DNA of 64,000 nucleotides from NCBI GenBank assembly GCA_021838715.1, contig JAKCCX010000006.1, forward strand, positions 7,948 through 71,947, written 5' to 3'. This document shows, in pieces, positions 18,470 through 37,630 of the stretch (position 1 is the stretch's first letter; each line of letters begins with the position of its first letter). The position numbers and the translations under genes are program-made. Below the pieces are notes generated by a model that made no database searches, was not told the DNA's origin, and saw only the letters and a program-made list of their open reading frames with translations. Origin of the DNA: Pseudomonadota bacterium. GTDB lineage: Bacteria; Pseudomonadota; Gammaproteobacteria; Burkholderiales; Burkholderiaceae_F.

Positions 18470-18560
18470 ACGACGTTTCGCCCCCGCACCTCCGATCGTC
18501 CCCTCCCCTGGCTTTGATATCCTCCCACGGAAGACCTTACGCGCAACGGCGAAAATTCTC

Positions 18561-19283
18561 ATGAGCAGGCGGGCACTCGTTACAGGGGGAAGTGGGGGCA
18601 TTGGCAGCGCGATTTGCAAACGGCTTGCCGCCGATGGATGCCACATCTTCGTGCATGCGAACGCAAACCCGGATGCCGCCGAAGAAATTGCGGGCGAGAT
18701 CATCGCGGCTGGCGGATCGGCCGAGGCGGTGTGCTTTGACATTACGAACGCCGGGCAAACGCGCGATGCCCTGGAATCCCTCCTCGAAGGGGGAGCCATC
18801 CAGATACTCGTCAACAATGCCGGGATCCATGATGACGCCGTATTCCCCGGGATGCGGACCGAACAATGGCATCGCGTGATCGATGTCTCGCTTCACGGAT
18901 TTTTCCATGCCACCCAACCGCTTGTCCTTCCAATGGTCCGGCAGCGATGGGGACGGATCGTCACCATCTCCTCGATAAGCGCGCTCGTCGGCAACCGGGG
19001 GCAGGTGAATTACGCGGCAGCGAAGGGGGCCGTCAACGCCGCCACCAAATCGCTTGCCGTGGAACTCGCAAGTCGAGGCATCACCGTGAACGCCGTCGCT
19101 CCCGGCATCATCGCGACGCCGGCGACGGCAGACGTATTCGACCGCGCCGCCATCGAATCGATGGTGCCCATGAAGCGCGCGGGAACTGTTGATGACGTGT
19201 CGAACCTTGTGGGATTCCTGTGTTCCGACCAAGCGTCCTACATCACCGGGCAAATCATCGCGATCAATGGGGGGATGTTCTAG
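18561..19283 (+). CDS. 3-oxoacyl-ACP reductase (SDR, FabG/ApeQ-like) of the aryl-polyene cluster
   Basis: ALVTGGSGGIGSAI, NNAG and YAAAKGAV (Y-x3-K) motifs. ORF trimmed to ATG 18561. Confidence 0.85.
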   Translation: MSRRALVTGGSGGIGSAICKRLAADGCHIFVHANANPDAAEEIAGEIIAAGGSAEAVCFDITNAGQTRDALESLLEGGAIQILVNNAGIHDDAVFPGMRTEQWHRVIDVSLHGFFHATQPLVLPMVRQRWGRIVTISSISALVGNRGQVNYAAAKGAVNAATKSLAVELASRGITVNAVAPGIIATPATADVFDRAAIESMVPMKRAGTVDDVSNLVGFLCSDQASYITGQIIAINGGMF

Positions 19284-19388
19284 ACGCAGCGCACCTTGCA
19301 CCCGCCCCCGTCCGTTCCGATTAAAATTTTTCCAGGCAGTAGGGAATTTCCCCGCATATGCGAAGGAGATCCCCCAAAGCGATTCCCG

Positions 19389-19682
19389 ATGACGACATTC
19401 GATTCCTCACCCGCCTCCGGCCAGGCACCCGATCTCCAGGAAGAGATTCGAGACCTCATTGTCTCCTCGTTGAACCTTACCGAACTCCCGGCCGATATCT
19501 CCGGTGATACGCCGCTGTATGGAGAAGGATTGGGGCTGGACTCGATCGACATTCTCGAAGTCGCGCTATTGGTGTCGAAACGCTATGGCCTGCAGCTTCG
19601 TGCCGACGACGGCAACAACGTCCAGATCTTCAAGACATTGGGATCGTTGGCGAAACACATTGCCGCCAACCGCACGAAGTAG
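19389..19682 (+). CDS. Acyl carrier protein (cluster ACP 1)
   Basis: 97 aa with the GLDSIDILE phosphopantetheine-attachment motif. Trimmed to ATG 19389. Confidence 0.8.
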   Translation: MTTFDSSPASGQAPDLQEEIRDLIVSSLNLTELPADISGDTPLYGEGLGLDSIDILEVALLVSKRYGLQLRADDGNNVQIFKTLGSLAKHIAANRTK

Positions 19683-19981
19683 TGGTGGCATCATTTCCAG
19701 CCCGGCTTGAAGTCCCGGCCTCCCACCCGATGTTCGCGGGCCATTTCCCGGACCATCCGATCGTTCCGGGGGCATGGATGATCGCGGAAGCCATGAAGAT
19801 CCTCAACGCATCGACGGAAATGCCATTCGCCTTGCGACACATCGAATCGATCAAGTTCCAGCGCCCGGTTCCCCCGGGGACGACCCTGGATCTCGCGCTG
19901 ACGCACAAAGGTCCCGACCGGATCGATCTACAGATCTTCCAGGGTGGAGAGGTTGTGGCAGAGATCCGTTTTCGTCCATAA
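19682..19981 (+). CDS. Small hotdog-fold 3-hydroxyacyl-ACP dehydratase (FabZ/ApeI-like)
   Basis: GHFPDHPIVPGAW active-site-type motif. 99 aa. The GTG start overlaps the ACP stop by 1 nt (TAGTG). Confidence 0.7.
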   Translation: MVASFPARLEVPASHPMFAGHFPDHPIVPGAWMIAEAMKILNASTEMPFALRHIESIKFQRPVPPGTTLDLALTHKGPDRIDLQIFQGGEVVAEIRFRP

Positions 19982-20076
19982 CCGCGTTCGATGCCGCACA
20001 AGCGAAGTCGATTTGAAGCGGGTATCGTCATCCGCATGCAGAACTTTTCCGGAATCTCGCCAAGGCAGCCATCGCC

Positions 20077-21270
20077 GTGTATCCATTGACGCTGTCGAGA
20101 TTCACGTTGACCACCTGCCTGGGGGTTGGACTGGAACCCAACCGGCAAGCCATCGTTGCCGGAAGGTCCGGGTTGACCCGTCTCCGGATCGACGACGCAG
20201 ACTTCGAAACCCATATCGGTGAAGTTTCCTCGCTTCTCGAAGTCAGGATTCCGCCCTCATTTTCCGGATGGGACTGCCGCAACAACCGCCTGGCATACAC
20301 GGCTTTGCAGCAAGACGCTTTCCTGGATTCGGTATTTCAGGCAGCTGCGCTGTACGGTCGCGGCAGAATCGGCGTATTCATCGGAACAAGCACGTCGGGA
20401 ATCCGCGAGACGGAAGAGGCATTCGCCCATCTCGACGCCAGCGGATCTCTGCCGCCCAGCTTTGATTATCGAAAAACCCACGCTTGCTTTTCCGTCGCGG
20501 ATTTTGTACGTCGGTTATTGAAGCTCGAGGGCCCCGCCTTCACGGTCTCGACGGCGTGCTCGTCCAGCGCCAAGGTTTTCCCCGCGGCGGCGCGCATGAT
20601 TTCGTCGGGGCTGATCGATGCCGCCGTGGTGGGGGGCGTCGACACACTGTGCCGGACGACGCTCTTCGGATTCCGTTCCTTGGAGTTGACGGCGTTGTCG
20701 GCTTGCAAACCCTTCGATGTCGCCAGGTCCGGCATCTCGATCGGCGAGGCGGGTGCCTTTGTACTTCTGGAACGCCCGGACCGGTCGCATACCGGGAGCG
20801 ATCTGGCGCTGTTCGGCGCGGGGGAATCAAGCGACGCCTACCACATGTCATCGCCGCATCCGGAGGGATTGGGCGCGCGCATTGCCATTGCCGCGGCGCT
20901 GGAATCGGCACGGTTGTCGCCGGAAGATATCGATTATGTCAACCTGCACGGCACGGGAACCCGCACCAACGATTCGGCGGAAGATATCGCGGTGGTCAAA
21001 ACCATCGGTGGGAAGACACCGTGCAGTTCGACCAAGGGCTCCACCGGCCATACCCTTGGCGCGGCGGGCGCGGTGGAAATCATCCTGTCCGCGCTGGCGA
21101 TTCAGGAACAGATCATTCCGGGCGGCGTTACCACCGAGGTAACGGATCCGGGCTTGCATTGCAACTTCGTTCGCACTCCTCGCCCGGCTGGCATACGGCG
21201 GGTTCTGAGCAATTCGTTTGGATTTGGAGGCTCGAATTGCGCGCTGATCATCGGCACGGCGACGAATTGA
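20077..21270 (+). CDS. Beta-ketoacyl-ACP synthase (elongating KS, ApeO-like)
   Basis: Catalytic Cys in VSTACSSS, plus NLHGTGT and GHTLGAAG His motifs. GTG start. Confidence 0.85.
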   Translation: MYPLTLSRFTLTTCLGVGLEPNRQAIVAGRSGLTRLRIDDADFETHIGEVSSLLEVRIPPSFSGWDCRNNRLAYTALQQDAFLDSVFQAAALYGRGRIGVFIGTSTSGIRETEEAFAHLDASGSLPPSFDYRKTHACFSVADFVRRLLKLEGPAFTVSTACSSSAKVFPAAARMISSGLIDAAVVGGVDTLCRTTLFGFRSLELTALSACKPFDVARSGISIGEAGAFVLLERPDRSHTGSDLALFGAGESSDAYHMSSPHPEGLGARIAIAAALESARLSPEDIDYVNLHGTGTRTNDSAEDIAVVKTIGGKTPCSSTKGSTGHTLGAAGAVEIILSALAIQEQIIPGGVTTEVTDPGLHCNFVRTPRPAGIRRVLSNSFGFGGSNCALIIGTATN

Positions 21271-21278
21271 GGCCCGGC

Positions 21279-22076
21279 ATGGATGCATGGGTAACGGGCA
21301 TTGGAATATTCGGCCACGGTTTCAACAACTGGCCAATCGCCCGGGCAATCCTGCGCGGCGAGGCGCATCCGTCTGGATCGGCCCTCCCGATCCCGCTGTG
21401 CTCCAAGCTCCCGGCAGCGGAAAGGCGCCGGGCCGGGAAGGTGGTCAACCTTGCATTGGGCGTAGGGTTCGAAGCAGTCGCCGCCGCCGGAGCGAACGCG
21501 CAAACCATTCCTACGGTTTTCGCCACCTCAAGCGCCGATGGCGAAAACTGCAGCGCGATCTGCACCGCGCTGGCGTCGCCGGACCCCGCCGACCATTCGA
21601 TATCTCCCACCCGATTTCATAACTCGGTCCATAACGCCGCCGCCGGGTATTGGGCGATCGCGTCCGGGGCGATGGCACCCTCGACGACCCTGAGCGCGTT
21701 CGATGGGAGTTTTTCGGCAGCCATCCTTGAAGCGTTATCCATCTTCGGCACCGGCGCCGATCACGTTCTCGCAACCGTGTTCGACGCGCCATATCCCGGC
21801 CCGCTTGACCGTGCCCGTCCGATTCAGGCGCCGCTTGCAGTCGCCCTTGTCTTATCCAGGGAACACGATTCCCGAAGCCTTGCGCACCTCCACGTCAGTC
21901 TTGCCGAGCGACCGGCGGACCCGATGCGCAACCCATCCCTGGAGCCCTTTCGCCGCGGTTCGCCGCCGGCAAGAGGATTCCCCATGCTCGAGCGAATTGC
22001 CATCGGCGAACGATCTCGAGTGTGCCTGGATTACCTGGATGATCTGAGACTCCAGGTTGAAATCGACCCGATATGA
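21279..22076 (+). CDS. KS-like chain-length-factor-type partner lacking the catalytic Cys (ApeC-like)
   Basis: 265 aa thiolase-fold-like protein. TTLSAFDGSFSAA sits where a KS has TACSSS, and no HGTGT or GHxxGAAG motifs are present. Lies directly after the KS gene. Confidence 0.65.
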   Translation: MDAWVTGIGIFGHGFNNWPIARAILRGEAHPSGSALPIPLCSKLPAAERRRAGKVVNLALGVGFEAVAAAGANAQTIPTVFATSSADGENCSAICTALASPDPADHSISPTRFHNSVHNAAAGYWAIASGAMAPSTTLSAFDGSFSAAILEALSIFGTGADHVLATVFDAPYPGPLDRARPIQAPLAVALVLSREHDSRSLAHLHVSLAERPADPMRNPSLEPFRRGSPPARGFPMLERIAIGERSRVCLDYLDDLRLQVEIDPI

Positions 22077-22579
22077 CCGGTATCGACAAGCACGCGATTT
22101 CGGAAATGATTCCGCACGCAGGCTCGATGATCCTGCTGGACGGGGTCGAACGATACGATGACGAGCGGCTCGTTGCCATCACGACAAGCCACGTCATGCC
22201 GGATAACCCGCTCAGGGATATGCAAGGTCGTCTTCATATCGCGTGCGGGATCGAATATGCCGCGCAGGCGATGGCGATTCACGGCGGACTCCTACGAGCG
22301 ACGGCCAGCGGCGCTCCGCCTTCCAAGCCCCGCGTCGGGCTTCTTGCCGGACTGCGCGGAATCGTTCTTTGCGCTGATTATCTCGACGAGATGCCAGGAC
22401 CGCTTCGGATCGAAGTCGCGTCCCTTTCGGCGGATGATCGGGCATCGCTCTACACGTTTGAAATCCGCGCCGGCGACCGCCTGATGTTGTCAGGACGCGC
22501 GACCGTCGTACACGACGCGATCAATCCCGGTCTCTCCCCCGTGCGCGCCGCCAAAGAAGTTGCGGCAGGCGCAGGGTGA
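22073..22579 (+). CDS. Hotdog-fold dehydratase (ApeP-like)
   Basis: IPHAGSMILLDGV N-terminal motif; 168 aa. ATGA overlap with the upstream gene. Its last 59 nt overlap the convergent GT2 gene. Confidence 0.65.
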   Translation: MTGIDKHAISEMIPHAGSMILLDGVERYDDERLVAITTSHVMPDNPLRDMQGRLHIACGIEYAAQAMAIHGGLLRATASGAPPSKPRVGLLAGLRGIVLCADYLDEMPGPLRIEVASLSADDRASLYTFEIRAGDRLMLSGRATVVHDAINPGLSPVRAAKEVAAGAG

Positions 22580-23321
22580 ATCCCACCATCAACCGGACAT
22601 GCATCCAGGTCAGCACCAGGTTGTCGCGAACGTAGCGGAAATGCGAAACCCCGCCGGCTTCGCGACTCATATAGCGTACGGGGGCTCGCACATTGACCGG
22701 CCTGACCCCCTCCCAACATAGTCGAACCGCCGCTTCCGGATCGAAATCGAATCGGCGCATCCAACGATTCTGCTCCATGACACGGAGCAGAGGCGTGATG
22801 GGATATACGCGAAACCCAAACAGGGAATCGCCTATGCCCACCCCCAACGTTTCCAGGTTGGCCCACCAATTCGAAATGCGCCGCCCGCGCACGCGCAATT
22901 GCGGAGCATCGGCGCCGAATTCCGGAACACCCAGGATCATGCGGGACGGATTTTCCCGCGAAAAATTCATGAACTGCCCGATCGATTGCGCCGGGTGCTG
23001 ATCGTCCGAGTCCATGGTCAGCACATGGGTGAAGCCCTCCTGCGCGGCATGACGGATGCCGTGGAGGACCGCCCCGCCCTTCCCGCCATTTTTTTCCAAC
23101 ACCAGCACGCGTACGCCCGGATCGCCCCGCGCGACCGCCTCGAACTGCGCTCGGGACCCGTCCGTGCTCCCATCGACGATCACCCATACCGGACACCACA
23201 GGGCACGAGCCGAACGAAGGGTTTCGACGCCCCGCGGCCCCGGGTTATAGCTCGGGATCATCACCAGATGCGTTTTCGAACACGGCTCATCCGGGCGATC
23301 GACAGCACTCACAGCAGACAC
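22521..23321 (-). CDS. Family 2 glycosyltransferase (polyprenyl-phosphate/lipid sugar transferase type, ArnC/DPM1-like)
   Basis: MIPSYNPG..., VDGSTDGS, KNGGKGGAV and MDSDDQHP motifs. GTG start at 23321. Confidence 0.8.
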   Translation of the reverse strand: MSAVSAVDRPDEPCSKTHLVMIPSYNPGPRGVETLRSARALWCPVWVIVDGSTDGSRAQFEAVARGDPGVRVLVLEKNGGKGGAVLHGIRHAAQEGFTHVLTMDSDDQHPAQSIGQFMNFSRENPSRMILGVPEFGADAPQLRVRGRRISNWWANLETLGVGIGDSLFGFRVYPITPLLRVMEQNRWMRRFDFDPEAAVRLCWEGVRPVNVRAPVRYMSREAGGVSHFRYVRDNLVLTWMHVRLMVGFTLRLPQLLWRRARGRDRD

Positions 23322-23444: not shown

Positions 23445-24167
23445 CTACGGGAACTCGCCGGGCCGCCGGCGACCGCCGATTCGATCCGGCGGAATCCATT
23501 TGGAAAGGAACGCGAACCCGCATGCAAGTGCAGTTCCGCCCGCGACATCGACCGCGACATGCTGCTTCGTCGCGATGGTCGAGAAGACGATCGCAAGCGC
23601 CCATATCGCGCTGATTCCGCGCACCCACGCGGAAAAGCCGATCCTGGACAGAAGGGCGTGCAAGCGAATCGATGCAAAAACCGCCGTCGCGACATGCAAG
23701 GACGGAAACGCATTCCCCGCCGCATCCACCCCTTTCAGGAATGCCATCCCCGGATACCTTTCCCAATGGGTTCCTGCCGGCGGGATGGCCGTAGGCCAAA
23801 CATAAAAAATGGTGAGTCCGAAAATGCAAATGGCCGCCATCGCCATGCCATAGCGGACGATCTCTCGCCGCGTCTCAACCAACATGGCAGGCAACGATAT
23901 GTACGCCCAAAGGGACAAATACACCGGCAAGGCCATCGGGGAAAAGTGGATCCACCGATCGATCCCCGTCACCGGCATGATGTGCACCGGGTAAGCCGGA
24001 TTTCGCAGCAGAAACACGTAGACGGCAAAAAAGACGGCAATAAAAACAACCGATCCAAAGAACTTGAACCAGAAGTGCTTCAAAACCGCTGCGAGCAACC
24101 GCCGCCACCCGGGCCTGGCCGTCGAACCCGAAAACGCCAACGAAATTTCCATCGATATGCCATTCAT
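23445..24167 (-). CDS. PAP2-superfamily integral membrane protein (phosphatase/phosphotransferase-like)
   Basis: About 6 TM segments. PSLH and KQHVAVD (H-x3-D) resemble PAP2 motifs C2 and C3; no clear KxxxxxxRP C1 motif. Confidence 0.55.
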   Translation of the reverse strand: MNGISMEISLAFSGSTARPGWRRLLAAVLKHFWFKFFGSVVFIAVFFAVYVFLLRNPAYPVHIMPVTGIDRWIHFSPMALPVYLSLWAYISLPAMLVETRREIVRYGMAMAAICIFGLTIFYVWPTAIPPAGTHWERYPGMAFLKGVDAAGNAFPSLHVATAVFASIRLHALLSRIGFSAWVRGISAIWALAIVFSTIATKQHVAVDVAGGTALACGFAFLSKWIPPDRIGGRRRPGEFP

Positions 24168-24664: not shown

Positions 24665-25306
24665 ATGCGAAGGCTTCACCTCGCACTTCTCGCCGTCGCC
24701 GCCTCGGCGTATTTCCTGCTCAACTATCTCGCCGCCGCGAAAAGGCTTCCCTCCGTCGACGCCACCCTGCTATCCCTCCTCCCGATCGGCGGATCGGCTG
24801 CCGTCGCCGCCTGGAATTCCCGCGCGCGAATTCCCGCACTATCCATGCTGGCCGCCGCGCTGGTGGCAACGGGCATCTGGTTTGATCGCTTGCGCACCAG
24901 CACCCAGTGGATCTATTTCGTCCAGGATGCGGGGGCCATGATCTCGCTGGCGATATTGTTCGGCACGACCGTCGGCAGGGACCACAAAACGGCCCTCTGT
25001 TCGCGCATCGCCATCGCCGTCAACAAAAACGCCGCCGATGACGATCTCCTCCGTTATACATGGAAGGTGACGATCGCCTGGACGGCATTTTTTGCCCTGT
25101 CGGCGCTGACATCGATCTACCTGTTCGCGTTCGATTCGATTACCGTTTGGTCGGCGTTCGCCAACATCGTCAATCCGATCCTCCTCATCGCGATGTTCGC
25201 CGGCGAGTACGCGATTCGATTGATCGCCATGCCGGGACATACCGACGTCGGAATCGGAAGCATCATTCGCGCCTACCGAACCACAAGCCGCCGCGAATCC
25301 CGGTAA
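24665..25306 (+). CDS. Integral membrane protein of unknown function (first gene of the ligase/export operon)
   Basis: Trimmed to ATG 24665 (MRRLHLALLAVAASAYFLL...). About 6 hydrophobic segments and no recognisable catalytic motif. Confidence 0.5.
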   Translation: MRRLHLALLAVAASAYFLLNYLAAAKRLPSVDATLLSLLPIGGSAAVAAWNSRARIPALSMLAAALVATGIWFDRLRTSTQWIYFVQDAGAMISLAILFGTTVGRDHKTALCSRIAIAVNKNAADDDLLRYTWKVTIAWTAFFALSALTSIYLFAFDSITVWSAFANIVNPILLIAMFAGEYAIRLIAMPGHTDVGIGSIIRAYRTTSRRESR

Positions 25307-25312
25307 CCCGCC

Positions 25313-26653
25313 ATGAGTACTTTGCCACTCCTACCGGAAGCGAATGGCGACCATGTCGTCGCCTACCGCAACGGGCTGCCCGTCACGCGCGCCGACCTCC
25401 TGCGCGACGTGAGGTCGATTGCCGCGACCCTGCCCGCCACCGAACATGTACTCAACCTCTGCAAGGACCGATACTGGTTCGCCGCAAGCCTTCTCGCCAC
25501 GATTTCCCGGAACATCAAGACATACCTACCCAATACGACGGCGCGGGAATACGTAGCCAGCCTGCAGAAATCACTTCCATTGGCGTGGCGCATCGGCGAC
25601 CACGACGACGGAAACGAGGACGACCTTCCCTACCGGAACATTGCCTCTGCGACGCACGGCGCGAACCATGGCGTGTTTCATGCACCCTCCATCCCCGGGA
25701 ATCGACCCGTCCTGACGATATACACCTCGGGATCGACGGGGAAACCCCAACCCCACCAGAAGACATTTCAGCGCCTCCACCAAAATGCGGCCGCCGAAGC
25801 GGATGTCATGTGGAAACTCGCGGGTGGGGAATGTTCCGTCGTGGGCACCGTTCCTTCGCAACACATGTACGGATTGGAGTCGACGATCCTTTTGCCGATG
25901 CTCTGCGGCGGGCGCCTCTCTTCCCGGATCCCGTTTTTCCCGAAAGATATCGCCGAGGCACTGGCCGAAACGCCGCCTCCGCGTCTTCTCGTGACGACGC
26001 CGTTCCATCTGCGAAACCTGCTGGACGCGGATATCGAGATACCGCCGGTCGCAGGCGTACTGAGCGCGACGGCGATGTTGCCATCCAGCCTGGCGATTGA
26101 GGCGGAACGTCGCTTGAACGCCCCGCTCGCAGAAATATACGGTTCGACCGAAACCGGGCAGATCGCATTTCGCAGACCAGTCCGTCATTCCGACTGGATC
26201 CCATATCCGGGAATCCATCTCGACCAAGCACATGGCAAGACGGCGGCAAAAGGCGGACACCTCGAACGGGAATACGACCTGAACGATGCCGTCGAAATCA
26301 CCGACTCGGGGACGTTTCACCTCCTCGGCCGAAACTCCGATATCGTGAATATCGCCGGCAAGCGAAGCTCGCTCGGGTACCTCAGTCATATCCTGACCGG
26401 CCTGCCGGGAGTGCACGACGGGGTGTATTTTCTTCCGGAATGCGATGAACCCGTCCGCGTCACGCGGCTTGCGGCGTTTGTCGTCGCGCCGCAACTGACC
26501 TCCTCCGAGATTTTGTCGGCACTGCGGAAGCACGTCGACCCGCTGTTCCTTCCCCGCCCGATCATCTTCGTGCCATCCCTGCCCCGCAACGGGACCGGCA
26601 AGATCCCGGCGGAGGACCTTGACAAATTCATCGCTGCGCACCATCCCCGATGA
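25313..26653 (+). CDS. AMP-dependent synthetase/ligase, probable aryl (hydroxybenzoate):ACP ligase (XanA2/ApeH-like)
   Basis: Adenylation motifs YTSGSTGKPQ, YGSTETG, GRNSDIVNIAGKR and NGTGKI. Confidence 0.8.
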   Translation: MSTLPLLPEANGDHVVAYRNGLPVTRADLLRDVRSIAATLPATEHVLNLCKDRYWFAASLLATISRNIKTYLPNTTAREYVASLQKSLPLAWRIGDHDDGNEDDLPYRNIASATHGANHGVFHAPSIPGNRPVLTIYTSGSTGKPQPHQKTFQRLHQNAAAEADVMWKLAGGECSVVGTVPSQHMYGLESTILLPMLCGGRLSSRIPFFPKDIAEALAETPPPRLLVTTPFHLRNLLDADIEIPPVAGVLSATAMLPSSLAIEAERRLNAPLAEIYGSTETGQIAFRRPVRHSDWIPYPGIHLDQAHGKTAAKGGHLEREYDLNDAVEITDSGTFHLLGRNSDIVNIAGKRSSLGYLSHILTGLPGVHDGVYFLPECDEPVRVTRLAAFVVAPQLTSSEILSALRKHVDPLFLPRPIIFVPSLPRNGTGKIPAEDLDKFIAAHHPR

Positions 26654-27606
26654 ATGGACCGCCATCGCAACCAATGCTCCATCCCCCTAAAAATCCGCGG
26701 GAACCGGACACCGGGTGGACTCGCCAAGAAGAGCGTGGAACGAACTTCGGGCTGGTCGTCATGCGATGGCTTTCGCTTTCCTTCGGCCGATCCGTTTCCC
26801 GTGCAGTCCTGCCTTTTGTAGTCGGCTACTTCATCCTGGCGATCCCATCCGCACGGCACGCGTCGAGGGCATACCTGCGACGATGCCTCAACAGGGATCC
26901 CGACCTCGTCGATGTGTACCGCCACATTTACGCCTTCGCGACGACTATTCACGACCGCGTATATATATTGAACGGACGCCAGGACCTATTCGACATCACC
27001 ATCACGGGGGCGGAAGCCTTACGGGCCGACATCGCCAACCAAGGCGGTGTCCTGCTCCTCGGCGCGCACTTCGGCAGCTTTGAAATGACCAGGGCCGTCT
27101 CGCGGCACATCCCGGAACTCAGGGTATATATGGCGATGTACTCCGACAACGCCCAAAAAATACGCAGCGCACTCGCCGCCATCAACCCCTCCGCGATGCA
27201 GAACATCATCGACCTCGCCGGAATCGACTCGCTTCTTGCGGCACATCTACACCTGTCGGAAGGCGCCGTCGTCGGCATGCTTGCCGACCGCACCATCCGG
27301 TCCGACGACTGCGTTCCGATCGGCTTCCTGGGAGAACCGGCGCCCTTCCCGACTGGGCCTTTTCGGTTTGCCGCGCTGCTGCGCCGGCCCATCTACTTCA
27401 TGGTCGGAAGTTACCGCGGGAAAAACCGGTATACCATCCATTTCGAGCGCCTGACCGATCCCTCGCTGGCGCCGCAAGACCGCGAGGCCCGCGTCGCTCA
27501 AATTCGGCGGGACTATGTTGCCGCCCTGGAGCGGCACTGCCGCTCGGCCCCGTACAACTGGTTCAATTTCTATGATTTCTGGAAGATCCCCGCTCGGAAC
27601 TCTTGA
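26650..27606 (+). CDS. LpxL/HtrB-type lysophospholipid/lipid A-like acyltransferase (LPLAT)
   Basis: N-terminal TM segment, HFGSFE (H-x4-D/E) motif and LADR...FLGEPAPFPTGP. ATGA overlap with the ligase gene. Confidence 0.7.
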   Translation: MNGPPSQPMLHPPKNPREPDTGWTRQEERGTNFGLVVMRWLSLSFGRSVSRAVLPFVVGYFILAIPSARHASRAYLRRCLNRDPDLVDVYRHIYAFATTIHDRVYILNGRQDLFDITITGAEALRADIANQGGVLLLGAHFGSFEMTRAVSRHIPELRVYMAMYSDNAQKIRSALAAINPSAMQNIIDLAGIDSLLAAHLHLSEGAVVGMLADRTIRSDDCVPIGFLGEPAPFPTGPFRFAALLRRPIYFMVGSYRGKNRYTIHFERLTDPSLAPQDREARVAQIRRDYVAALERHCRSAPYNWFNFYDFWKIPARNS

Positions 27607-30522: not shown

Positions 30523-30584
30523 TTACCAAGATGGGCTGCCAGGGCAGACAGCGACCATTCACCGAAAGCGGGAGGTTTTGTCTT

Positions 30585-31055
30585 ATGAAGGCCGTGATCG
30601 CTATCATGTCCGCCAGCATCCTGTTGCTGGGGTGCGCCACCACCTCGAGCGTGACCACCGGCGCGCAAGGCACAATCGACCAGCTTCATACGGTCGCCTT
30701 TGTGCCCCAGGGAGGAAGTTCAGTGGATGTCGACAACGACATCCAACGCGCCTTGTTGGCCCAGGGGGCGGACATTCGTGCCACGGCTCCGTCGGGGACG
30801 AGAAAAATGGCCGGGGTCGATGCGGTCGTATCCTACGAAGACGTATGGAGATGGGATATGGTGATGTACATGAAATCGATCGACATCGACGTCTTTGACG
30901 CGAATACCGGCAGCCTTTTGGTTGCCGGTCATTGGGAAAACTCCCCGCTGCACGGATATCAGGACCCGGCAAAGGTGATTGGTCACGTGGTGACCGACAT
31001 GTTTCATAAAATGGGATGGGGTCATCCCGCGAAATACGGGGTTGTCACCCACTAA
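30585..31055 (+). CDS. Lipoprotein of unknown function
   Basis: MKAVIAIMSASILLLGC lipobox. GGGAGG lies 9 nt upstream of ATG 30585. Confidence 0.7.
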   Translation: MKAVIAIMSASILLLGCATTSSVTTGAQGTIDQLHTVAFVPQGGSSVDVDNDIQRALLAQGADIRATAPSGTRKMAGVDAVVSYEDVWRWDMVMYMKSIDIDVFDANTGSLLVAGHWENSPLHGYQDPAKVIGHVVTDMFHKMGWGHPAKYGVVTH

Positions 31056-31085
31056 CCCCGATCTGGGACTCGATGCGGGTTCGGG

Positions 31086-31907
31086 ATGCACATGCAGTAC
31101 GCTTGGCGGCCATCTCCCTTTGTCGTTGTCAGTGCCGGAATTCATGGGGCCGCGCTTGCCGCCTGCGTTTCGAGTCCGGAATTCTGGCCGTACGCGGCCG
31201 GTGCGATCGCGTGCAACCAGTTCGCGATCGTTCTCGGCGGGCTTTTGCCGAGAAGCGCTCTACTCGGCCCCAATATCGTGCGATTGCCCGCGGCGGCAAT
31301 CCGCCGGCAGGAGGTCGCCATCACGATCGATGACGGCCCAAGTCCCGAAGTGACCCCGCTCGTCCTGGAGATTCTCGATCGCTTCGGCGTCAAGGCGACA
31401 TTTTTCTGTATCGGCGATCGCGTTCAGACCTATCCGGACCTGTGCAGAAGCATCATTGCTTGCGGCCATTTGATCGAAAACCATGGCCAGACGCACCGAA
31501 CGCGGTACGCCTTCCTCGGCTATCGGGGTTGGCTACAGGAAGTTGGCAGGGCTCAGGAAACCATTACTGCCGTGACCGGCCGCGCGCCACGCTGCTTTCG
31601 CGCACTTGCCGGCATTCGCAATCCGTTTCTGGATCCCGTTCTCGCGGGCCTCGGCGTCCGCCTCGCTTCCTGGACCCACCGCGGCTTCGACACCCGGGAA
31701 ACCAACGCCGACCGGGTGTTCCTGCGGCTGACACGCCATCTTTCGTCGGGCGACATCCTGCTGCTGCATGACGGAAATTGCGCCAGGTCCAAGTCGGGAG
31801 AACCGATCATCCTGGAAGTGCTGCCACGCCTGCTGCGGGAAATCGAGAGTCGGAAGCTGAAGACCGTGACCCTCGAGGCGGCGTTCGATCGCGCCGACCC
31901 CGGGTAG
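31086..31907 (+). CDS. Membrane-anchored polysaccharide deacetylase (NodB homology domain)
   Basis: Hydrophobic N-terminus, then ITIDDGP, NHGQTH and LLLHDGN motifs. Confidence 0.8.
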   Translation: MHMQYAWRPSPFVVVSAGIHGAALAACVSSPEFWPYAAGAIACNQFAIVLGGLLPRSALLGPNIVRLPAAAIRRQEVAITIDDGPSPEVTPLVLEILDRFGVKATFFCIGDRVQTYPDLCRSIIACGHLIENHGQTHRTRYAFLGYRGWLQEVGRAQETITAVTGRAPRCFRALAGIRNPFLDPVLAGLGVRLASWTHRGFDTRETNADRVFLRLTRHLSSGDILLLHDGNCARSKSGEPIILEVLPRLLREIESRKLKTVTLEAAFDRADPG

Positions 31908-31943: not shown

Positions 31944-32819
31944 TCACATTCTGGATGGAAGTTCGCAGCCGCCGGCGAGCAGCCATCGCGACAGCGCCTG
32001 AAATTTGCGTCGCTGTCCCGGCGACAGCTTTTCATATCGCGATTGAACGCGGGACGCGATCTGCGGCGACCATTCGCGGCGCCAGCCGGTCTTGAAGACG
32101 ACGAGGAACGGCGCGAGCGGTGTCGTGAACCGCTCCATCGCGTGCCCCATGCCTGCCACTGCCCCCGTCAGTTCGGAAACGGTGAATGCCGCCTGGAGCG
32201 ACTGGAGAAAATCCCGGGTGAATGCCGGAGATTGCTCGCGCTTCCATTCGCTTGAAAAGTGCCGCATGGTCGCGAGCCGATTCATGCGGCCGAAATCCGC
32301 GAGATACGCCCCTCCGCGGGGCCGTAGGATTCGGCCCATTTCAGAAAAAGCCGACCCGAGTTCCCCTACATCCGCGAGGTGATGCAGCGACATCGTGCAT
32401 GTCAGGCTGTCGACCGAGGCAGCGGCGAACCCGGTCAGATCGGTCATGTCGCCAAGACAAACCTCTACGTTCTTCACGCCTTGGCGCGCGACCAAGGCCT
32501 TTGCCTTGTCGACCATTCGCGGCGACGCATCGATTCCGACGAAGTCGGAATCGGGATTGAGCGTTGCCGTCAGCACCAACTGATTGCCAGGACCGCACGC
32601 CAGATCCAGTACGGCATCCCCCGGCCTGATCACCGTCGTCGCCTGCAAGGCGTGGTACAGATACAGGAATTCGAGAATCCCGCCATCGGATCCGGCGGCA
32701 TCGAACGCATCGGCCTGGCACGGATCATCCATGACCAGTTCCCGCTCCGGAACACGCGCCGTGCCGGTGAAGGCAAGGCGGTCCAGGAGCAGGTTGATCA
32801 TCATCCGCGGACCCGACAT
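31944..32819 (-). CDS. Class I SAM-dependent methyltransferase
   Basis: VLDLACGPG motif I, with downstream GGAYLADF. Confidence 0.75.
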   Translation of the reverse strand: MSGPRMMINLLLDRLAFTGTARVPERELVMDDPCQADAFDAAGSDGGILEFLYLYHALQATTVIRPGDAVLDLACGPGNQLVLTATLNPDSDFVGIDASPRMVDKAKALVARQGVKNVEVCLGDMTDLTGFAAASVDSLTCTMSLHHLADVGELGSAFSEMGRILRPRGGAYLADFGRMNRLATMRHFSSEWKREQSPAFTRDFLQSLQAAFTVSELTGAVAGMGHAMERFTTPLAPFLVVFKTGWRREWSPQIASRVQSRYEKLSPGQRRKFQALSRWLLAGGCELPSRM

Positions 32820-32843
32820 TCCTTTCCCGCCTTCAAGAAGGAC

Positions 32844-33617: not shown

Positions 33618-33629
33618 GTCTTTGCCACG

Positions 33630-34493
33630 CTATCGTTTCGCAGGAACCTCATTCGAACTGCGCGCAAGCTCTCCGATAAAATAGTCGCGCAAGGTATCCG
33701 TGAATTCCCTCGGATCATCCGGGGGGTCGAACCGCACGCCCAACCGTACACGAAAATGCATCGGCATTCCCGGCCTCCGGAAAAACGGGTAGCCCTTGCC
33801 GAGGAAATTCGTATCCTGCTCGACGATGACGGTTTGTATCGGCACCCGGGACCGGTAGGAAATATATGCGGCGCCGGTCCGAAACGGATTCAGAGGGGCG
33901 ATCTCGGTTCGCGTCCCCTCGGGAAACAGCAATATCTGGCTGCCGCGCCGCAACTCTTCCACTGCCAGATTCACGGATCCGAGAAACCAGTCGTTTGAAA
34001 TATATCCCGCCAGCCGCGCTCCCGCGCCCCAGAAAATACTGCGCAGCAAGGATGACTTCAGTAGACACACGACATCCGGCAAGCGCGAAACGATCATCGG
34101 CGCATCGAGCAACCCGGGGTGATTCGCCGCGATGATCAACGGCCCTCGATCGCCGAGCGCATCCAATGCCTCAAGATCAAAGCGCGCGGCCCTAATCCGC
34201 TCCAGGCCGAACAGATATGCCCGGAACCCATACGTTGCCATGCGCCTGCCGAACCGATTGCGCAAGCGGCCGCGCAAAAGCAGATTCAACAGGAGCGCCG
34301 CCAAGGAAAAAACAACGCACCCGATGCCAAGCACCGCGTATCCGATCAGCAGCGTCGCATATTCGCGTCCTGGTTGCGCGAGGGATGGGGTTCCGCTTCC
34401 GTTCAGCACGGCCTGGTTCGATGCGTATCCGAGAGCCCAAACCCTTCGATTTCCACCAGCAAATCGGCGCGACATATATCGGCCTGAAGCCAC
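33630..34493 (-). CDS. 1-acyl-sn-glycerol-3-phosphate acyltransferase family (PlsC-type)
   Basis: N-terminal TM segment, NHPGLLD (H-x4-D) and FPEGTR motifs. The start is uncertain: the track start lies inside the 3' end of the upstream chorismatase gene, and GTG 34409 is an alternative. Confidence 0.75.
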   Translation of the reverse strand: MASGRYMSRRFAGGNRRVWALGYASNQAVLNGSGTPSLAQPGREYATLLIGYAVLGIGCVVFSLAALLLNLLLRGRLRNRFGRRMATYGFRAYLFGLERIRAARFDLEALDALGDRGPLIIAANHPGLLDAPMIVSRLPDVVCLLKSSLLRSIFWGAGARLAGYISNDWFLGSVNLAVEELRRGSQILLFPEGTRTEIAPLNPFRTGAAYISYRSRVPIQTVIVEQDTNFLGKGYPFFRRPGMPMHFRVRLGVRFDPPDDPREFTDTLRDYFIGELARSSNEVPAKR

Positions 34494-35437
34494 GTCACGT
34501 CGACGTCGGGCCGCAATTTTTCGAAAAGAGCGCCTTGCACCTCGGGAAGGTCGGATGGGTGACGCAAATAGGCCCGGAGCCGGAGGTCGGCTACAGAAAA
34601 CGTTCCCGTGGCTGCACGGAGATTGGCCTGATCGACCACCGCCTCGAGGTTTTGCAACGTCTCAACCGTCTGCGCCGCGGCATCCCCGACGTGAACGCTT
34701 TGGTGACCAACAATGCTCGCCGTACCCGAAACAAAGATTGCCTGGGATTCCGGCGACAGCGACAGCACGGTGGCACGCGAAAACAGCGGACTCACCGGAC
34801 CGTACTGCGACGGGTAGTGATATGCGCTTACCTGGCGTGGATTTTCAATTGCGTCCGGAACGTACTTGGACGCGAGAAAGTAGATTACGACCTGTCCTGG
34901 GGACGTCGCCGATGCGGACGTTCCCAGCGCGCTCGCCGCGGGAGCGGCGTCGGCCCGCAACCGGCCCGACCGGTCGAATGCCCTGGCCCTGCCGATATTG
35001 AAATGGCGGTACCGTTCCAGTCCGTGCTCGGATTCATTGATCCGCGAAAAATAGTTCCAGCACCGGATCAGGTGGGGGTACCCCATTTCTCGGGTTGCCT
35101 TGAGGATCAATCCGTAGGAAAAATCCGCCACGAGCTGCACCGAAGCGACCGGGCTTGCAGACCGAAAATCTCCTTCATCCAGGGCGATGCAGCCGGCACA
35201 AAAGTGCTCCGTCGACCGATATCGCAACGGACCTTCGGCCCCCCGATGGATTGCACCGTCGCCGACAAAAATGGCGTGCGCCGACCCCGAATTTCCGAGC
35301 GGTCGCATGGGGACCACGCCCAGCGAGTCCACGTCGCCGGCCGCTCCGGAGGCATCGTACAAAACCGTGGCAAGAACGCGCTCGGAGTCCACCTCCTCGC
35401 CGCTTGCGAGCATTCGCAGAGAGATCCTCGCTTGCAT
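34403..35437 (-). CDS. FkbO/Hyg5/XanB2-type chorismatase (hydroxybenzoate synthase) with a RidA/YjgF-like C-terminal domain
   Basis: ORF trimmed to ATG 35437, 2 nt after the KS stop. IRCWNYFSRIN...RYRHFNIGR and IFVSGTASIVGHQSVHVGDAAAQTVETLQNL are characteristic of this family. Confidence 0.7.
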   Translation of the reverse strand: MQARISLRMLASGEEVDSERVLATVLYDASGAAGDVDSLGVVPMRPLGNSGSAHAIFVGDGAIHRGAEGPLRYRSTEHFCAGCIALDEGDFRSASPVASVQLVADFSYGLILKATREMGYPHLIRCWNYFSRINESEHGLERYRHFNIGRARAFDRSGRLRADAAPAASALGTSASATSPGQVVIYFLASKYVPDAIENPRQVSAYHYPSQYGPVSPLFSRATVLSLSPESQAIFVSGTASIVGHQSVHVGDAAAQTVETLQNLEAVVDQANLRAATGTFSVADLRLRAYLRHPSDLPEVQGALFEKLRPDVDVTWLQADICRADLLVEIEGFGLSDTHRTRPC

Positions 35438-35439
35438 TT

Positions 35440-36693
35440 TCAATCCACGGCCCGGAACGCCAGCACCGCGTTGCTTCCGCCAAATGCGAATGAATTGCTT
35501 ATCGCGGCACGAATTCCCGGGTTCGCCACGCCCTCGCGCACCACATGGCGGACACCCTGGCATTCTTCTCCGACTTCATCCAGATTCGCCGTTGGCGGAA
35601 CCTTGTCTTCGTGAACGGCGAGTGCCGCAACCAAGGCCTCGACCGCGCCGGCGGCACCCAAGGAGTGTCCGTGCATGGATTTCGTCGAACTCACCAGCAG
35701 ATCGGCTGCGTGGCTGCCGAACACCGACTTGAGGGACGCGATTTCTATCGCATCGCCCTCTCGGGTGCCGGCCGCGTGGGCATTGACATACCCGACATCC
35801 GCCGCCTGCAAATCCGCCTCCGCCATCGCGGCGCGCAGAGCCCGGGACTGCCCCTCCGCGCTCGGGCGCACGAGGTGCGTGTGATCGCAGCTTTGGCCGA
35901 AGCCCGCAAGCTCGCAATAAATCCGCGCGCCGCGCTCGCTCGCATGCTCAAAGTCTTCCAGGATGAGTGCCGCGGCACCTTCGGCCAGCACCAGTCCCGA
36001 TCTTCTCGCATGGAAGGGGCGACAGGCCTGACTCGCCGTCGGCTCGGTACATTCGGCCACAACGCGCATCCCCTCCCAGGCGCGCATCACCGAAAAAGAC
36101 AAGGGCGCCTCGGAGCCGCCGGCCAGCGCAATCGGGGTTTCCCCCGCCTTGATGCGCCGGAACGCCTCGCCGATCGCCACCGTGGAGGACGCGCATGCGA
36201 CGGAATAGGTCAGGCACGCCCCTCCCAGCCCAAGAGCGATCGCGATCTGGGACGCTGCCGCGCTATTCATGGCCATCGGAACGGATAGCGGCGACGCGCG
36301 AGTCCTTCCGAGCTTGTAATAGTCGACGTATCCTGATTCGATGGTCAGCGTCCCGCCGATTCCGGTTCCCCAGGAAACGCAGAAGGGATTATCGATGGTC
36401 GCTGCCGGCGCAAGTTCGGCGTCCCGCCATGCGGAAAACGCCGCCGCGATACCCAGTTGGGCGAAGCGATCGGTCAGGGACGAAAGCTGACGCCCCAACA
36501 CGCGTTCCGAATCGAAACCTCGACACACCGCGGCCGGCTGTGCGAGATCCGGACTCGCATCAGGCTGGCGATACCAGCCTATGGACGACTCCCCGGCCAC
36601 CGTTCTCGCGAAAAAATCATGGACATCACCGCCATACGGACTGACGATGCCGACGCCGGTGACCGCAACACGACGCGTTCTGTTCCGAGTCAT
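35440..36693 (-). CDS. Beta-ketoacyl-ACP synthase (FabF-like; probable priming KS, ApeR-like)
   Basis: RRVAVTGVGIVSP, catalytic Cys in SVACASS, and NAHAAGT and GHSLGAAG His motifs. Confidence 0.85.
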   Translation of the reverse strand: MTRNRTRRVAVTGVGIVSPYGGDVHDFFARTVAGESSIGWYRQPDASPDLAQPAAVCRGFDSERVLGRQLSSLTDRFAQLGIAAAFSAWRDAELAPAATIDNPFCVSWGTGIGGTLTIESGYVDYYKLGRTRASPLSVPMAMNSAAASQIAIALGLGGACLTYSVACASSTVAIGEAFRRIKAGETPIALAGGSEAPLSFSVMRAWEGMRVVAECTEPTASQACRPFHARRSGLVLAEGAAALILEDFEHASERGARIYCELAGFGQSCDHTHLVRPSAEGQSRALRAAMAEADLQAADVGYVNAHAAGTREGDAIEIASLKSVFGSHAADLLVSSTKSMHGHSLGAAGAVEALVAALAVHEDKVPPTANLDEVGEECQGVRHVVREGVANPGIRAAISNSFAFGGSNAVLAFRAVD

Positions 36694-36929
36694 TTGGATT
36701 TTTTGGATATCGCCTTCTCAAACGTATCGACCAATTCCCCGACCGTCTCGGGACGCGGCATGTCGTTTGAAAATCGCACCCCAAACTTTTCCTCAACCTC
36801 GAAAAGCAGTTCCAGCAAACTCAATGAATCAATTCCAATTTCCGCCAATTTGCTGTCAACATGGATCTGTTCTGGCGGATTGTCGACGTGTTTTTTTACA
36901 AACTCTTTCAACAGCGCAATCGTGTCCAT
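36690..36929 (-). CDS. Acyl carrier protein (cluster ACP 2, XanC-like)
   Basis: 79 aa with a GIDSLSLLE motif. ATGA overlap with the KS start. Confidence 0.8.
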   Translation of the reverse strand: MDTIALLKEFVKKHVDNPPEQIHVDSKLAEIGIDSLSLLELLFEVEEKFGVRFSNDMPRPETVGELVDTFEKAISKKSK

Positions 36930-36947
36930 AGGTGCCGCAAAACCTGC

Positions 36948-37343
36948 TCATTTCGCATTCAAATTTTGACTGGGGTCGACATGGGATTGGTATTCCCCCT
37001 GCATCTTTTTCCCGGCACGCTCGAATTCCCTGCCGACAAAGGCAACGCCCTTTTTTATTCCCTTTTCCGTCTTGGACACGCCGGTGTCGATTGCAGGACC
37101 CACCGCTTGCGCTCCGCGCTTGAGGGCGGCGCCGGTCTTGTCCGCGGCCTTCGTCAAAGCGGATGTAACGCGATTCGAGTCGTTTCCTTGCGCGCCGCGG
37201 CATGCCGGAGACAACATTGCCAGCGGTACCAGGACACAGGCGACGCCGGCGCGGACAAGGTCGCTCCGGCGTCTTCTGCTTGCGCTGGCGCACGCCATGT
37301 CCGCCCGCCCACCGCATGCATCAATGCTTGCTTGTTTCCGCAT
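36948..37343 (-). CDS. Small exported Lys/Gly/Ala-rich protein of unknown function
   Basis: Signal-peptide-like MACASASRRRRSDLVRAGVACVLVPLAMLSPA if the start is the Met at 37298. The mature part is rich in K, G and A. Only 18 nt from the ACP gene. Confidence 0.45.
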   Translation of the reverse strand: MRKQASIDACGGRADMACASASRRRRSDLVRAGVACVLVPLAMLSPACRGAQGNDSNRVTSALTKAADKTGAALKRGAQAVGPAIDTGVSKTEKGIKKGVAFVGREFERAGKKMQGEYQSHVDPSQNLNAK

Positions 37344-37630
37344 GGTGCGTCATCCTGTTTCCCAATGTGCCATTCCGCAGGATCCGGGGGGAAATTGGCG
37401 TCGCTCGAGTCCCCCGGAGGGTAATCGGCCCCGCCTCCAGGGCTGTCCGAAACGAGCGTCCCGGCACGGATCCGCATACGAAATCTTCCCGCTCAAGCCC
37501 CCCGGCTCCTACGCGATTCTTTTACGCGGTTCCCTCTCCGCGGAGTATACATTTTGAAACACGCCCCCAATACGGTGCCGCGCGCGGCACCGAGGAGCGG
37601 CGCCGTGATTGCCGGCGGCCGGGCTGACGA

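Follow-up and report, generated by a model that had tools for sequence, protein, structure and literature searches.

A predicted aryl-polyene lipid gene cluster of the xanthomonadin-like, arc-type sub-family, probably acquired, next to tRNA-Cys in a betaproteobacterial contig

Aryl-polyene pigments guard cells against reactive oxygen and light damage. In contig JAKCCX010000006.1 of the bacterial assembly GCA_021838715.1, a block of genes that seemed to belong to this kind of pathway lies between a tRNA-Cys gene and an aldehyde dehydrogenase gene (aldH), which raises the questions of what the block would make and how it came to occupy that site. The stretch of DNA that was analysed, referred to here as the window, comprises 64,000 nucleotides (positions 7,948 to 71,947 of the contig, forward strand), and positions are given within it. 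With a probability of roughly 85%, the region from ~18.5 to 37.56 kb appears to be a self-contained cluster for a yellow, cell-bound aryl-polyene pigment lipid of the xanthomonadin-like (arc-type) sub-family, most likely acquired by its host; this reading stands on homology and gene content, from which each chemical step and the product are predicted.

The block lies directly downstream of tRNA-Cys(GCA) at 18396-18469, as an earlier note made from the sequence alone had described, and starts 41-92 nt after it; tRNA-Gly(GCC) is found further upstream at 18196-18271 (ARAGORN and Rfam). That note had counted 23 genes, one more than the 22 protein genes that were found in the interval from tRNA-Cys to aldH (37667-39187). 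Open reading frames (ORFs) were chosen by codon-position GC and then compared with gene calls on identical public contigs, where the gene caller agrees on 22. The architecture proposed in the note, four operons arranged as two convergent pairs, was reproduced in all its coordinates, namely 18561-22579 (+), 24167-22521 (-), 24665-31907 (+) and 37343-31944 (-), and its domain assignments were all reproduced by Pfam and NCBIfam. The 3' ends of operons 1 and 2 overlap by 59 nt, and operons 3 and 4 are separated by a 36-nt gap. The cluster spans ~19 kb in one uninterrupted block. The proteins were compared by BLASTP with those of the ape cluster of E. coli CFT073 (NC_004431.1, 1143727-1158748), to which the identities to Ape proteins in the following list refer.

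18396..18469 (+): tRNA-Cys (GCA), left landmark; ARAGORN, Rfam
18561..19283 (+): FabG-type ketoreductase, ApeQ-like; NF004200 at 354 bits, 47% identity to CFT073 ApeQ (E=7e-71)
19389..19682 (+): acyl carrier protein 1 (ACP1), ApeE-like, DSI motif; PF00550, NF006617, 49% identity to ApeE
19682..19981 (+): small hotdog dehydratase, ApeI-like, HPxxxGHFP motif; PF07977, sub-threshold PF22818, PDB 3ESI and 6QSR_A, 29% identity to ApeI
20077..21270 (+): elongating ketosynthase 1 (KS1), ApeO-like, Cys-His-His triad; NF006618 at 502 bits, PDB 6QSP_A (3e-77) and 7F28_B, 43% identity to ApeO
21267..22076 (+): chain-length-factor (CLF)-like partner, ApeC-like, 269 aa, ketosynthase N-domain only, without catalytic apparatus; PF13723, sole PDB matches 6QSP_B and 7F28_A, 28% identity to ApeC
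22073..22579 (+): hotdog dehydratase, ApeP-like; PF22817 sub-threshold (found in the L019 and L020 orthologues described below), weak PDB match 6QSR_B, 27% identity to ApeP (E=3e-5)
22521..23321 (-): GT2 glycosyltransferase, counterpart of the fused E. coli ApeJ (N-terminal half); PF00535, 36% identity to ApeJ (E=8e-50)
23445..24167 (-): PAP2-family membrane phosphatase with several transmembrane segments; PF14378/PF01569, counterpart daro_4168 of Dechloromonas aromatica
24665..25306 (+): polytopic membrane protein, ApeG-like; transmembrane segments, no Pfam match, 28% identity to ApeG (E=4e-6), start backed by alignment
25313..26653 (+): adenylating ligase, ApeH/ArcT/XanA2-like; PF00501/PF13193, 29% identity to ApeH (E=1e-28)
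26650..27606 (+): LpxL-type acyltransferase, counterpart of E. coli ApeJ (C-terminal half); PF03279, 31% identity to ApeJ (E=1e-39)
27572..28186 (+): LolA-like periplasmic carrier, ApeL-like, start uncertain (27572 or 27695, gene calls of 204 and 163 aa); PF19574 (LolA_3), NF053544 LolA2_flexi sub-threshold
28183..30522 (+): MMPL/RND exporter, ApeM-like; PF03176, 28% identity to ApeM
30585..31055 (+): lipoprotein of 156 aa, lipobox LLLGC, in the position of ApeN/ArcO; NF040519 sub-threshold, position as azo0255 and daro_4178
31092..31907 (+): NodB-family polysaccharide deacetylase, transmembrane segment at the N-terminus, DD/HxxxH/LLHD motifs; PF01522 at 82.8 bits, counterparts arcN, daro_4179 and vapar_2675
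31944..32819 (-): class I S-adenosylmethionine (SAM) methyltransferase; PF13847/PF13649
32844..33617 (-): UbiE/COQ5-type methyltransferase; PF01209 at 110.6 bits
33630..34409 (-): PlsC-type (lyso)phospholipid acyltransferase, ApeD-like; PF01553, 32% identity to ApeD (E=2e-19)
34403..35413 (-): FkbO/Hyg5/XanB2-family chorismatase; PF21168 at 99 bits, PDB 5AG3 (2e-45) and 4BPS (6e-41)
35440..36693 (-): second ketosynthase (KS2), FabF-like, Cys-His-His triad; TIGR03150 at 393 bits, below cut-off, best PDB match FabF, 31% identity to ApeR
36690..36929 (-): acyl carrier protein 2 (ACP2), DSL motif, gene with the lowest GC in the block; PF00550, third-codon-position GC (GC3) 0.55
36948..37343 (-): 131-aa protein, N-terminus signal-like, tail rich in Lys; no Pfam or PDB match, 65% identity in L007, conserved in near relatives only
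37509..37558 (-): conserved leader/promoter-region element 5' of operon 4, TGTATACTCCGCGGAGAGGGA...CGCGTAGGAG, the right limit of homology to relatives; blastn, alignment

The proposal that this set encodes a type II polyketide synthase (PKS) of the aryl-polyene/xanthomonadin type is backed by the CFT073 comparison, by structure matches to ApeO:ApeC, ApeI:ApeP and Hyg5, and by published tables of betaproteobacterial clusters. In the BLASTP comparison with the E. coli proteins, a check that had been suggested in the earlier note, 13 of the 22 block proteins match the expected CFT073 Ape partner, with identities of 27-49%. The solved structures closest to KS1 are 6QSP_A (3e-77) and 7F28_B, and the chain-length-factor-like protein matches only 6QSP_B and 7F28_A in the PDB; the entries 6QSP and 7F28 represent ApeO-ApeC of Xenorhabdus doucetiae and Acinetobacter baumannii (PMC8358021), and the KS:CLF pair of the block is, as judged by its sequence, of the ApeO:ApeC type. 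Both full ketosynthases keep the Cys-His-His triad, and both ACPs, each with a PF00550 domain, carry the DS motif, ACP1 being 49% identical to ApeE. Since the GT2 glycosyltransferase matches the N-terminal half of ApeJ (36%) and the LpxL-type acyltransferase its C-terminal half (31%), the fused ApeJ of E. coli corresponds to two genes in the block.

With regard to the aryl starter, the chorismatase shares its operon with a ketosynthase and an ACP. In the alignment with the Hyg5 structure 5AG3 (2e-45) it keeps the Hyg5-type Gly (SGTAS) and Cys (CR) as well as the catalytic Glu (LLVEIEG), whereas FkbO (4BPS, 6e-41) bears SAT and AR at the first two signature positions; its score for TIGR04444 is 215.6 bits, under the cut-off of 325. 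Gly and Cys constitute the Hyg5-type signature and Glu-334 is the catalytic residue (PMC7170507), and their conservation suggests that formation of 3-hydroxybenzoate (3-HBA) would be favoured, with 4-hydroxybenzoate (4-HBA) as a possible co-product. In Azoarcus, 3-HBA is formed by ArcB and activated by ArcT (PMC3949708). The idea that the PKS is primed by hydroxybenzoate is thus upheld by the presence of the chorismatase and of an ApeH/ArcT-like ligase in the cluster, together with the Hyg5/FkbO structure matches.

The sub-family to which the block belongs can be read from the xanthomonadin-like clusters of Betaproteobacteria described by Schoner et al. 2014 (PMC3949708), bearing in mind that the match to the Azoarcus, Dechloromonas and Variovorax clusters rests on annotation and domains, not on sequence identity. 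The genes azo0253-0262 of Azoarcus BH72 are listed as methyltransferase, polysaccharide deacetylase, hypothetical, exporter, LolA, acyltransferase, dehydratase, AMP-ligase, hypothetical and ACP (PMC3949708), an order that equals operon 3 of the window read in reverse. The daro_4168-4199 region of D. aromatica RCB begins with PA-phosphatase, ACP, ketosynthase, ACP, transmembrane protein, AMP-ligase, dehydratase, LpxL-type acyltransferase, hypothetical and exporter, and continues with hypothetical, polysaccharide deacetylase, methyltransferase, ketosynthase, N-domain ketosynthase, FabA-like dehydratase, ketoreductase, glycosyltransferase, PlsC acyltransferase, MipA, chorismatase and halogenase (PMC3949708). 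Likewise, in Variovorax paradoxus S110 a UbiE-like methyltransferase adjoins the chorismatase, and a polysaccharide deacetylase is present (PMC3949708). Every gene class of the block except the 131-aa protein has a published counterpart in these betaproteobacterial clusters, and the NodB, PAP2, methyltransferase and PlsC/LpxL genes are not new, because the Azoarcus, Dechloromonas and Variovorax tables list them. The earlier note had taken the extra head-group and tailoring genes as a hint of a different final lipid; the genes are indeed there, but they are extra only in comparison with E. coli and Xanthomonas and are standard in the clusters of these three genera. Among the terms counted in the Xanthomonas cluster table (PMC3949708), there is an entry for halogenase and none for deacetylase, phosphatase or methyltransferase, and the block therefore groups with the betaproteobacterial sub-type.

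The likeness to the arc-type clusters of Azoarcus, Dechloromonas and Variovorax extends over the chorismatase, the AMP-ligase, two ACPs, two ketosynthases with an N-domain partner, the ketoreductase, the hotdog dehydratases and GT2, and further over the PlsC/LpxL acyltransferases, the LolA-like protein, the exporter, the small hypothetical protein or lipoprotein, the deacetylase, the methyltransferase(s) and the PA-phosphatase. The order of methyltransferase, deacetylase, hypothetical, exporter, LolA, acyltransferase, ligase and membrane protein is that of operon 3, and the Rhodocyclales-like order of the host is likewise shared. Conversely, arcA-X of Azoarcus is distributed over two unlinked loci and the Dechloromonas block is broken by unrelated genes, whereas the window has a contiguous 19 kb in four operons, and it lacks the FAD halogenase, MipA, the radical-SAM methyltransferase, the adjacent two-component regulator and DarAB. 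No halogenase or FAD-monooxygenase domain was found in the 22 block proteins or elsewhere in the 64-kb window. The ape clusters of E. coli CFT073 and X. doucetiae, which specify aryl-polyene lipids (APELs), share with the block equivalents of ApeQ, E, I, O, C, P, J, G, H, M, D and R and the export genes. Compared with the E. coli cluster, ApeJ is split, KS2 is FabF-like, ApeK, ApeA and the ApeB-type methyltransferase are missing, and there are four operons instead of one, with a chorismatase, a NodB deacetylase, a PAP2 phosphatase, two different methyltransferases and the 131-aa secreted protein as additions. The pig/xan clusters of Xanthomonas campestris and X. oryzae and the cluster of Lysobacter enzymogenes, which were compared by gene content, resemble the block in the XanB2-type supply of 3-HBA, in loading by a ligase and in an unusual type II PKS with a CLF-like protein, and acyltransferase, glycosyltransferase, LolA-like and exporter genes are also common to both, the xan pigment being bound to the outer membrane. 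Xanthomonadins are nevertheless brominated, the X. campestris pv. campestris (Xcc) cluster has a halogenase and the hosts are Gammaproteobacteria, in contrast to the halogenase-free window and its betaproteobacterial host.

From these assignments a route to the product can be proposed. The chorismatase would turn chorismate into 3-HBA, and possibly 4-HBA also, which the AMP-ligase would adenylate and load onto an ACP, as ArcT does in Azoarcus. The FabF-like ketosynthase and the ApeO:ApeC-type KS:CLF heterodimer would then extend the chain with malonyl units, each of which the FabG-type ketoreductase and the ApeI/ApeP-type dehydratases would convert to a conjugated double bond. One or both of the methyltransferases may decorate the ring, and the product is expected to be free of bromine because the cluster has no halogenase. 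In the model of the APEL study, which is also the source for the roles of ApeG, ApeL, ApeM and ApeN, ApeD acylates a lysophospholipid and ApeJ adds a hexosamine and then the polyene. By analogy, the PlsC-type acyltransferase, GT2 and the LpxL-type acyltransferase would assemble a glycerophospho-(amino)sugar lipid and attach the polyene through an ester bond, while the NodB deacetylase and the PAP2 phosphatase would trim the head group. Export of the lipid to the outer membrane could finally be the task of the MMPL pump together with the ApeG-like membrane protein, the lipoprotein and the LolA-like carrier.

Several features fit this route less well and have to be counted against it. The matches of the ApeI- and ApeP-like dehydratases are weak, with Pfam scores under the gathering cut-off in the block proteins. 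KS2 is FabF-like by its sequence, ApeR being FabB-like: its top PDB matches are FabF, the ApeR entries 7F27 and 4EWG are not among its matches at E<=1e-60, and its identity to ApeR is 31%. Counterparts of the ApeK thioesterase and of the ApeB-type methyltransferase are absent from the block, and the ring substitution, the chain length and the lipid head group of the product are predicted from the gene set. Furthermore, the Azoarcus polyene is esterified to a dialkylresorcinol (PMC3949708), and no homologue of DarA or DarB, which are unlinked in Azoarcus, was found within the 64-kb window, although they could, by analogy, be located elsewhere in the genome. This last point leads to another possible, if rather unlikely, product, a polyene esterified to a dialkylresorcinol (arcuflavin- or flexirubin-like) instead of a glycolipid of the Xenorhabdus APEL type, with DarAB encoded elsewhere as in Azoarcus BH72. 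The closest systems in the same order, those of Azoarcus and Dechloromonas, do have an unlinked DarAB, Azoarcus makes such an ester, and no more than 64 kb of the genome lies in the window; against it, apart from the lack of DarA and DarB in the window, a simple ester of this kind would leave the set of ApeD/ApeJ-equivalent lipid-assembly enzymes with GT2, NodB and PAP2 unexplained, and the ester and the glycolipid are not mutually exclusive products. A role of the block in the modification of lipid A, envelope lipids or polyunsaturated fatty acids, without an aryl starter and with a chorismatase that serves only ubiquinone synthesis or diffusible-factor signalling, seems highly improbable. 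LpxL-, PlsC-, PAP2- and NodB-type enzymes are typical of envelope lipids, XanB2 of Xanthomonas also feeds ubiquinone synthesis and the Xenorhabdus aryl-polyene PKS also yields a non-aryl conjugated fatty acid, but the chorismatase is co-operonic with a ketosynthase and an ACP, the ligase matches the benzoate-loading ApeH/ArcT, the KS:CLF pair specifically resembles ApeO:ApeC, and the combination of genes equals an antiSMASH-style definition of an aryl-polyene cluster.

The relatives of the predicted aryl-polyene lipid cluster show in which surroundings such a block can occur. Chorismatases with 97, 84, 73 and 71% identity to that of the block were found, all on metagenome contigs, and the next ones fall to <=55%; homologues at E<=1e-10 number >5,000, the nearest named one being from Oryzomicrobium sp. 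(48% identical). The relatives, the closest of them with 64-90% amino acid identity, keep the four-operon layout with minor changes. Specifically, the loci L019 and L007 (protein identity 64-87%) have a third methyltransferase (L007 7399-8118), L010 (80-90%) lacks the second methyltransferase and the lipoprotein, L011 (47-69%) has a WYL-domain regulator between the deacetylase and the exporter (7399-8436) and also a third methyltransferase, and L020 (43-70%) has a MipA outer-membrane protein between GT2 and PAP2 (13139-14032), in a position that recalls arcC of Azoarcus. The 3' overlap of the convergent ApeP-like and GT2 genes (59 nt, 22521-22579) is kept in L019 (7405-7463, 59 nt) and L020 (12370-12407, 38 nt). 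In a chorismatase scan of 185,579 GTDB species representatives, the only matches were in two metagenome-assembled genomes (MAGs) of Opitutaceae (Verrucomicrobiota), with 40-43% identity. Their loci, L005 and L006, contain homologues of PAP2, NodB, GT2, PlsC, the LpxL-type acyltransferase, the ligase, MMPL, ketosynthase and chorismatase at 23-53% identity, and the arc-type sub-type thus crosses phyla, since these two MAGs carry the same accessory set. In L005, a tRNA-Phe gene (9601-9676) is located directly upstream of the chorismatase.

At the nucleotide level, homology with the relatives runs from 18511, 41 nt past tRNA-Cys, to ~37558, ~110 nt before the aldH stop codon, and the shared unit is therefore ~19.05 kb long. 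At its right end, the leader at 37509-37558 (TGTATACTCCGCGGAGAGGGA..CGCGTAAAAGAATCGCGTAGGAG) is nearly identical in L007 (~1685-1735) and in L009, where the coding regions have ~75% nucleotide identity; with its short inverted repeats, it may be a promoter/operator or an element of the 5' untranslated region. As a shared regulatory motif it was discarded, the TGTATACT leader of operon 4 not being repeated at the other promoter regions of the cluster. Scans for promoters and terminators within the block gave background levels.

How the block arrived beside tRNA-Cys is a separate question, for which its composition and the contexts of its relatives are the main sources. Its GC content is 0.612 for 18470-37440 and 0.684 for the remainder of the window; the means over 60-nt lines are likewise 0.612 inside and 0.684 outside, with a minimum of 0.38 at 36781, in the ACP2 gene. 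The hand counts of the earlier note had pointed to a lower GC content in the block, which holds (61.2% vs 68.4%, and a line of ~40% in an ACP region next to the computed minimum of 0.38), and to flanks of 70-73%, which were too high, the computed value being 68%. The codon usage, whose computation the note had also suggested, separates the two sets of genes completely: per-gene GC3 is 0.55-0.77 in the 22 block genes and 0.81-0.92 in 23 flank genes, without overlap (Mann-Whitney U=0, p=1e-8; means of 0.70 and 0.86), and the GC content of first codon positions (GC1) is also lower in the block (0.63 vs 0.70), that of second positions being equal. Expression level does not seem to be the cause of the GC3 gap, because flank genes of presumably low expression (the sigma-54 activator, a histidine kinase and hyp genes) keep a GC3 of 0.83-0.89, that of the weakly expressed flank regulators being 0.85. 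The shift in composition falls at the tRNA-Cys boundary and matches the ends of the homologous DNA. With regard to context, the block extends from tRNA-Cys to aldH in the window, has a TacA/GNAT toxin-antitoxin pair on one side and an SLT gene on the other in L019 and L007, and in L020 follows an amino-acid kinase and RcnB; a tRNA gene is absent nearby in L019, L007 and L020. That just two distant chorismatase relatives turned up among the 185,579 species representatives likewise favours a foreign origin. From composition and from these differing contexts, and with no mechanism implied, horizontal acquisition of the block next to tRNA-Cys appears probable.

A number of results speak against acquisition. 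The note's statement that the block contains no regulator, integrase or transposase was confirmed, as Pfam searches found no such domain in any of the 22 block proteins, and there are no plasmid genes in the block either. A generic repeat search detected no flanking direct repeats longer than 11 nt. The last 11 nt of tRNA-Cys (18459-18469, CCCCGCCTCCA) recur on the same strand at 37429-37439, in the spacer between operon 4 and aldH, these being the only two copies in 64 kb (chance ~0.6-1%). As an attR this 11-mer was rejected, since it lies ~115 nt inside the cluster-homologous leader and L007 has not conserved it; the recurrence is probably a coincidence and not the scar of an att site, which leaves no credible att site. 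In the comparison of the tRNA-Cys/aldH junction with other genomes, proposed in the earlier note, all conspecific contigs carry the block, and more distant relatives have lost synteny there. At 99.7-99.99% identity, the block is present at this site in >20 conspecific metagenome contigs and in three MAG assemblies (GCA_027444325.1, GCA_027444365.1 and GCA_027444205.1), and every contig with an identical aldH or a sigma-54 activator that is >=90% identical carries it, so that no presence/absence polymorphism was seen among them. A search for an empty site via the symporter of the left flank found orthologues in L014, L015 and L017 (78-83% identity) with entirely different neighbours, and a search via CoaBC in metagenomes found relatives that are <=68% identical, in which coaBC-dut is kept and the symporter, tRNA-Gly, tRNA-Cys and aldH do not follow. 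Moreover, the GC3 of the cluster is lower than that of the flanks in L019 as well (0.62-0.78 vs 0.82-0.85), which could be a property of the cluster and not of a recent transfer; repeated transfers from donors of lower GC would give the same pattern as a bias intrinsic to the cluster.

An alternative is a native, vertically inherited cluster, in which the low GC3 would reflect weak codon-usage selection or intrinsic bias and the different flanks would come from genome rearrangement. That explanation is consistent with the absence of an integrase, a transposase and a credible att site, with the fixation of the block at one site in all conspecific contigs, with the frequency of xanthomonadin-like clusters in Rhodocyclales such as Azoarcus and Dechloromonas, with the GC3 of L019 and with the fast decay of synteny around the flank genes in the host group. 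It appears unlikely, nonetheless, given a GC3 gap of 0.15 without overlap over 45 genes, the high GC3 of low-expression flank genes, a GC1 that is shifted too, a compositional break at the tRNA-Cys boundary and the homology limits, and a GC3 in the L020 cluster that is nearly that of its flanks, by which the bias is not intrinsic everywhere. The acquired island of the earlier note is thus kept for its composition and for the three differing contexts, and it is weakened by the missing mobility genes, att repeat and empty site and by the fixation in conspecific contigs. Islands associated with tRNA genes, such as PAI-serX of E. coli, which bears ape, are similar in their adjacency to a tRNA 3' end, in atypical composition and in a cargo for secondary metabolism, but the CFT073 island has an integrase, whereas the block has no integrase, mobility genes or convincing direct repeats. 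The ape cluster of CFT073 is situated ~15 kb inside an island that starts with a tyrosine integrase (L101 27703-28905, corresponding to 1,127,702-1,128,904) and contains insertion sequence (IS) fragments.

The genes around the predicted aryl-polyene lipid cluster inform on its host. The left flank is of housekeeping character and comprises ispH, radC, an MFS transporter, a desaturase, mscS, purN, ribF, ileS, lspA, coaBC, dut and an SSF symporter, and the right flank aldH, a GAF/sigma-54 activator and a hox/hyp regulatory-hydrogenase regulon. The nearest named orthologues of the symporter (75-79%) belong to Rhodocyclaceae MAGs, Denitratisoma, Zoogloea and Rugosibacter, which suggests that the host is an uncultured, H2-sensing, Rhodocyclaceae-like betaproteobacterium, represented in metagenomes only. 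The region 41479-64000 encodes a hoxJ-like kinase, the small and large subunits of a sensor NiFe hydrogenase, a hoxA-like sigma-54 regulator, hypC/D/E/F, NicO and further NiFe subunits; such a complete regulatory-hydrogenase and maturation region would make the host a probable H2 oxidiser. Upstream of the block, a sigma-70 consensus promoter with a 12/12 match (TTGACA, 16 nt, TATAAT) is located at 18156-18183, just 5' of tRNA-Gly, and a terminator-like hairpin (GCCGCGTTGCGGC then TTTTGTTT) at 18284-18306 separates tRNA-Gly from tRNA-Cys, so that tRNA-Cys may be transcribed separately. Further to the left, a 400-aa ORF at 4836-6038 (-) has a fatty-acid desaturase domain at residues 17-230 and, at residues 289-395, part of an ISL3-family DDE transposase (E=6e-8). 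It may represent an IS remnant that was either fused to the desaturase gene or is reached by read-through from it; the transposase part, 12 kb from the block, is the sole transposase trace in the window. In L015 (8781-9806) and L016 (1145-2170), a symporter (80% identical) adjoins a stand-alone FkbO/Hyg5-like chorismatase and a PrpF-family gene without an aryl-polyene cluster, a neighbourhood that may belong to a separate hydroxybenzoate pathway.

Taken as a whole, the locus represents a contiguous, halogenase-free example of a well-described and very widespread cluster family and not a new class of system, and the same four-operon block is found at different chromosomal sites in related lineages. 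A more far-reaching interpretation, which we regard as speculative and unlikely, is that this compact single-locus form encodes an aryl-polyene lipid whose head group is unlike that of the sole solved APEL, as the split ApeJ, the membrane-anchored NodB and PAP2 might indicate, and that the 19-kb unit, although it carries no mobility genes itself, moves as a block among high-GC Betaproteobacteria and has reached Opitutaceae. The head group could be, for instance, a de-N-acetylated hexosamine with a free or N-acylated amine, one possibility that is modelled on the logic of ArnC/ArnD or LpxC/LpxD. In practical terms the locus would be of modest value, as a compact 19-kb template for heterologous expression from which the effect of NodB and PAP2 on the head group could be learnt.

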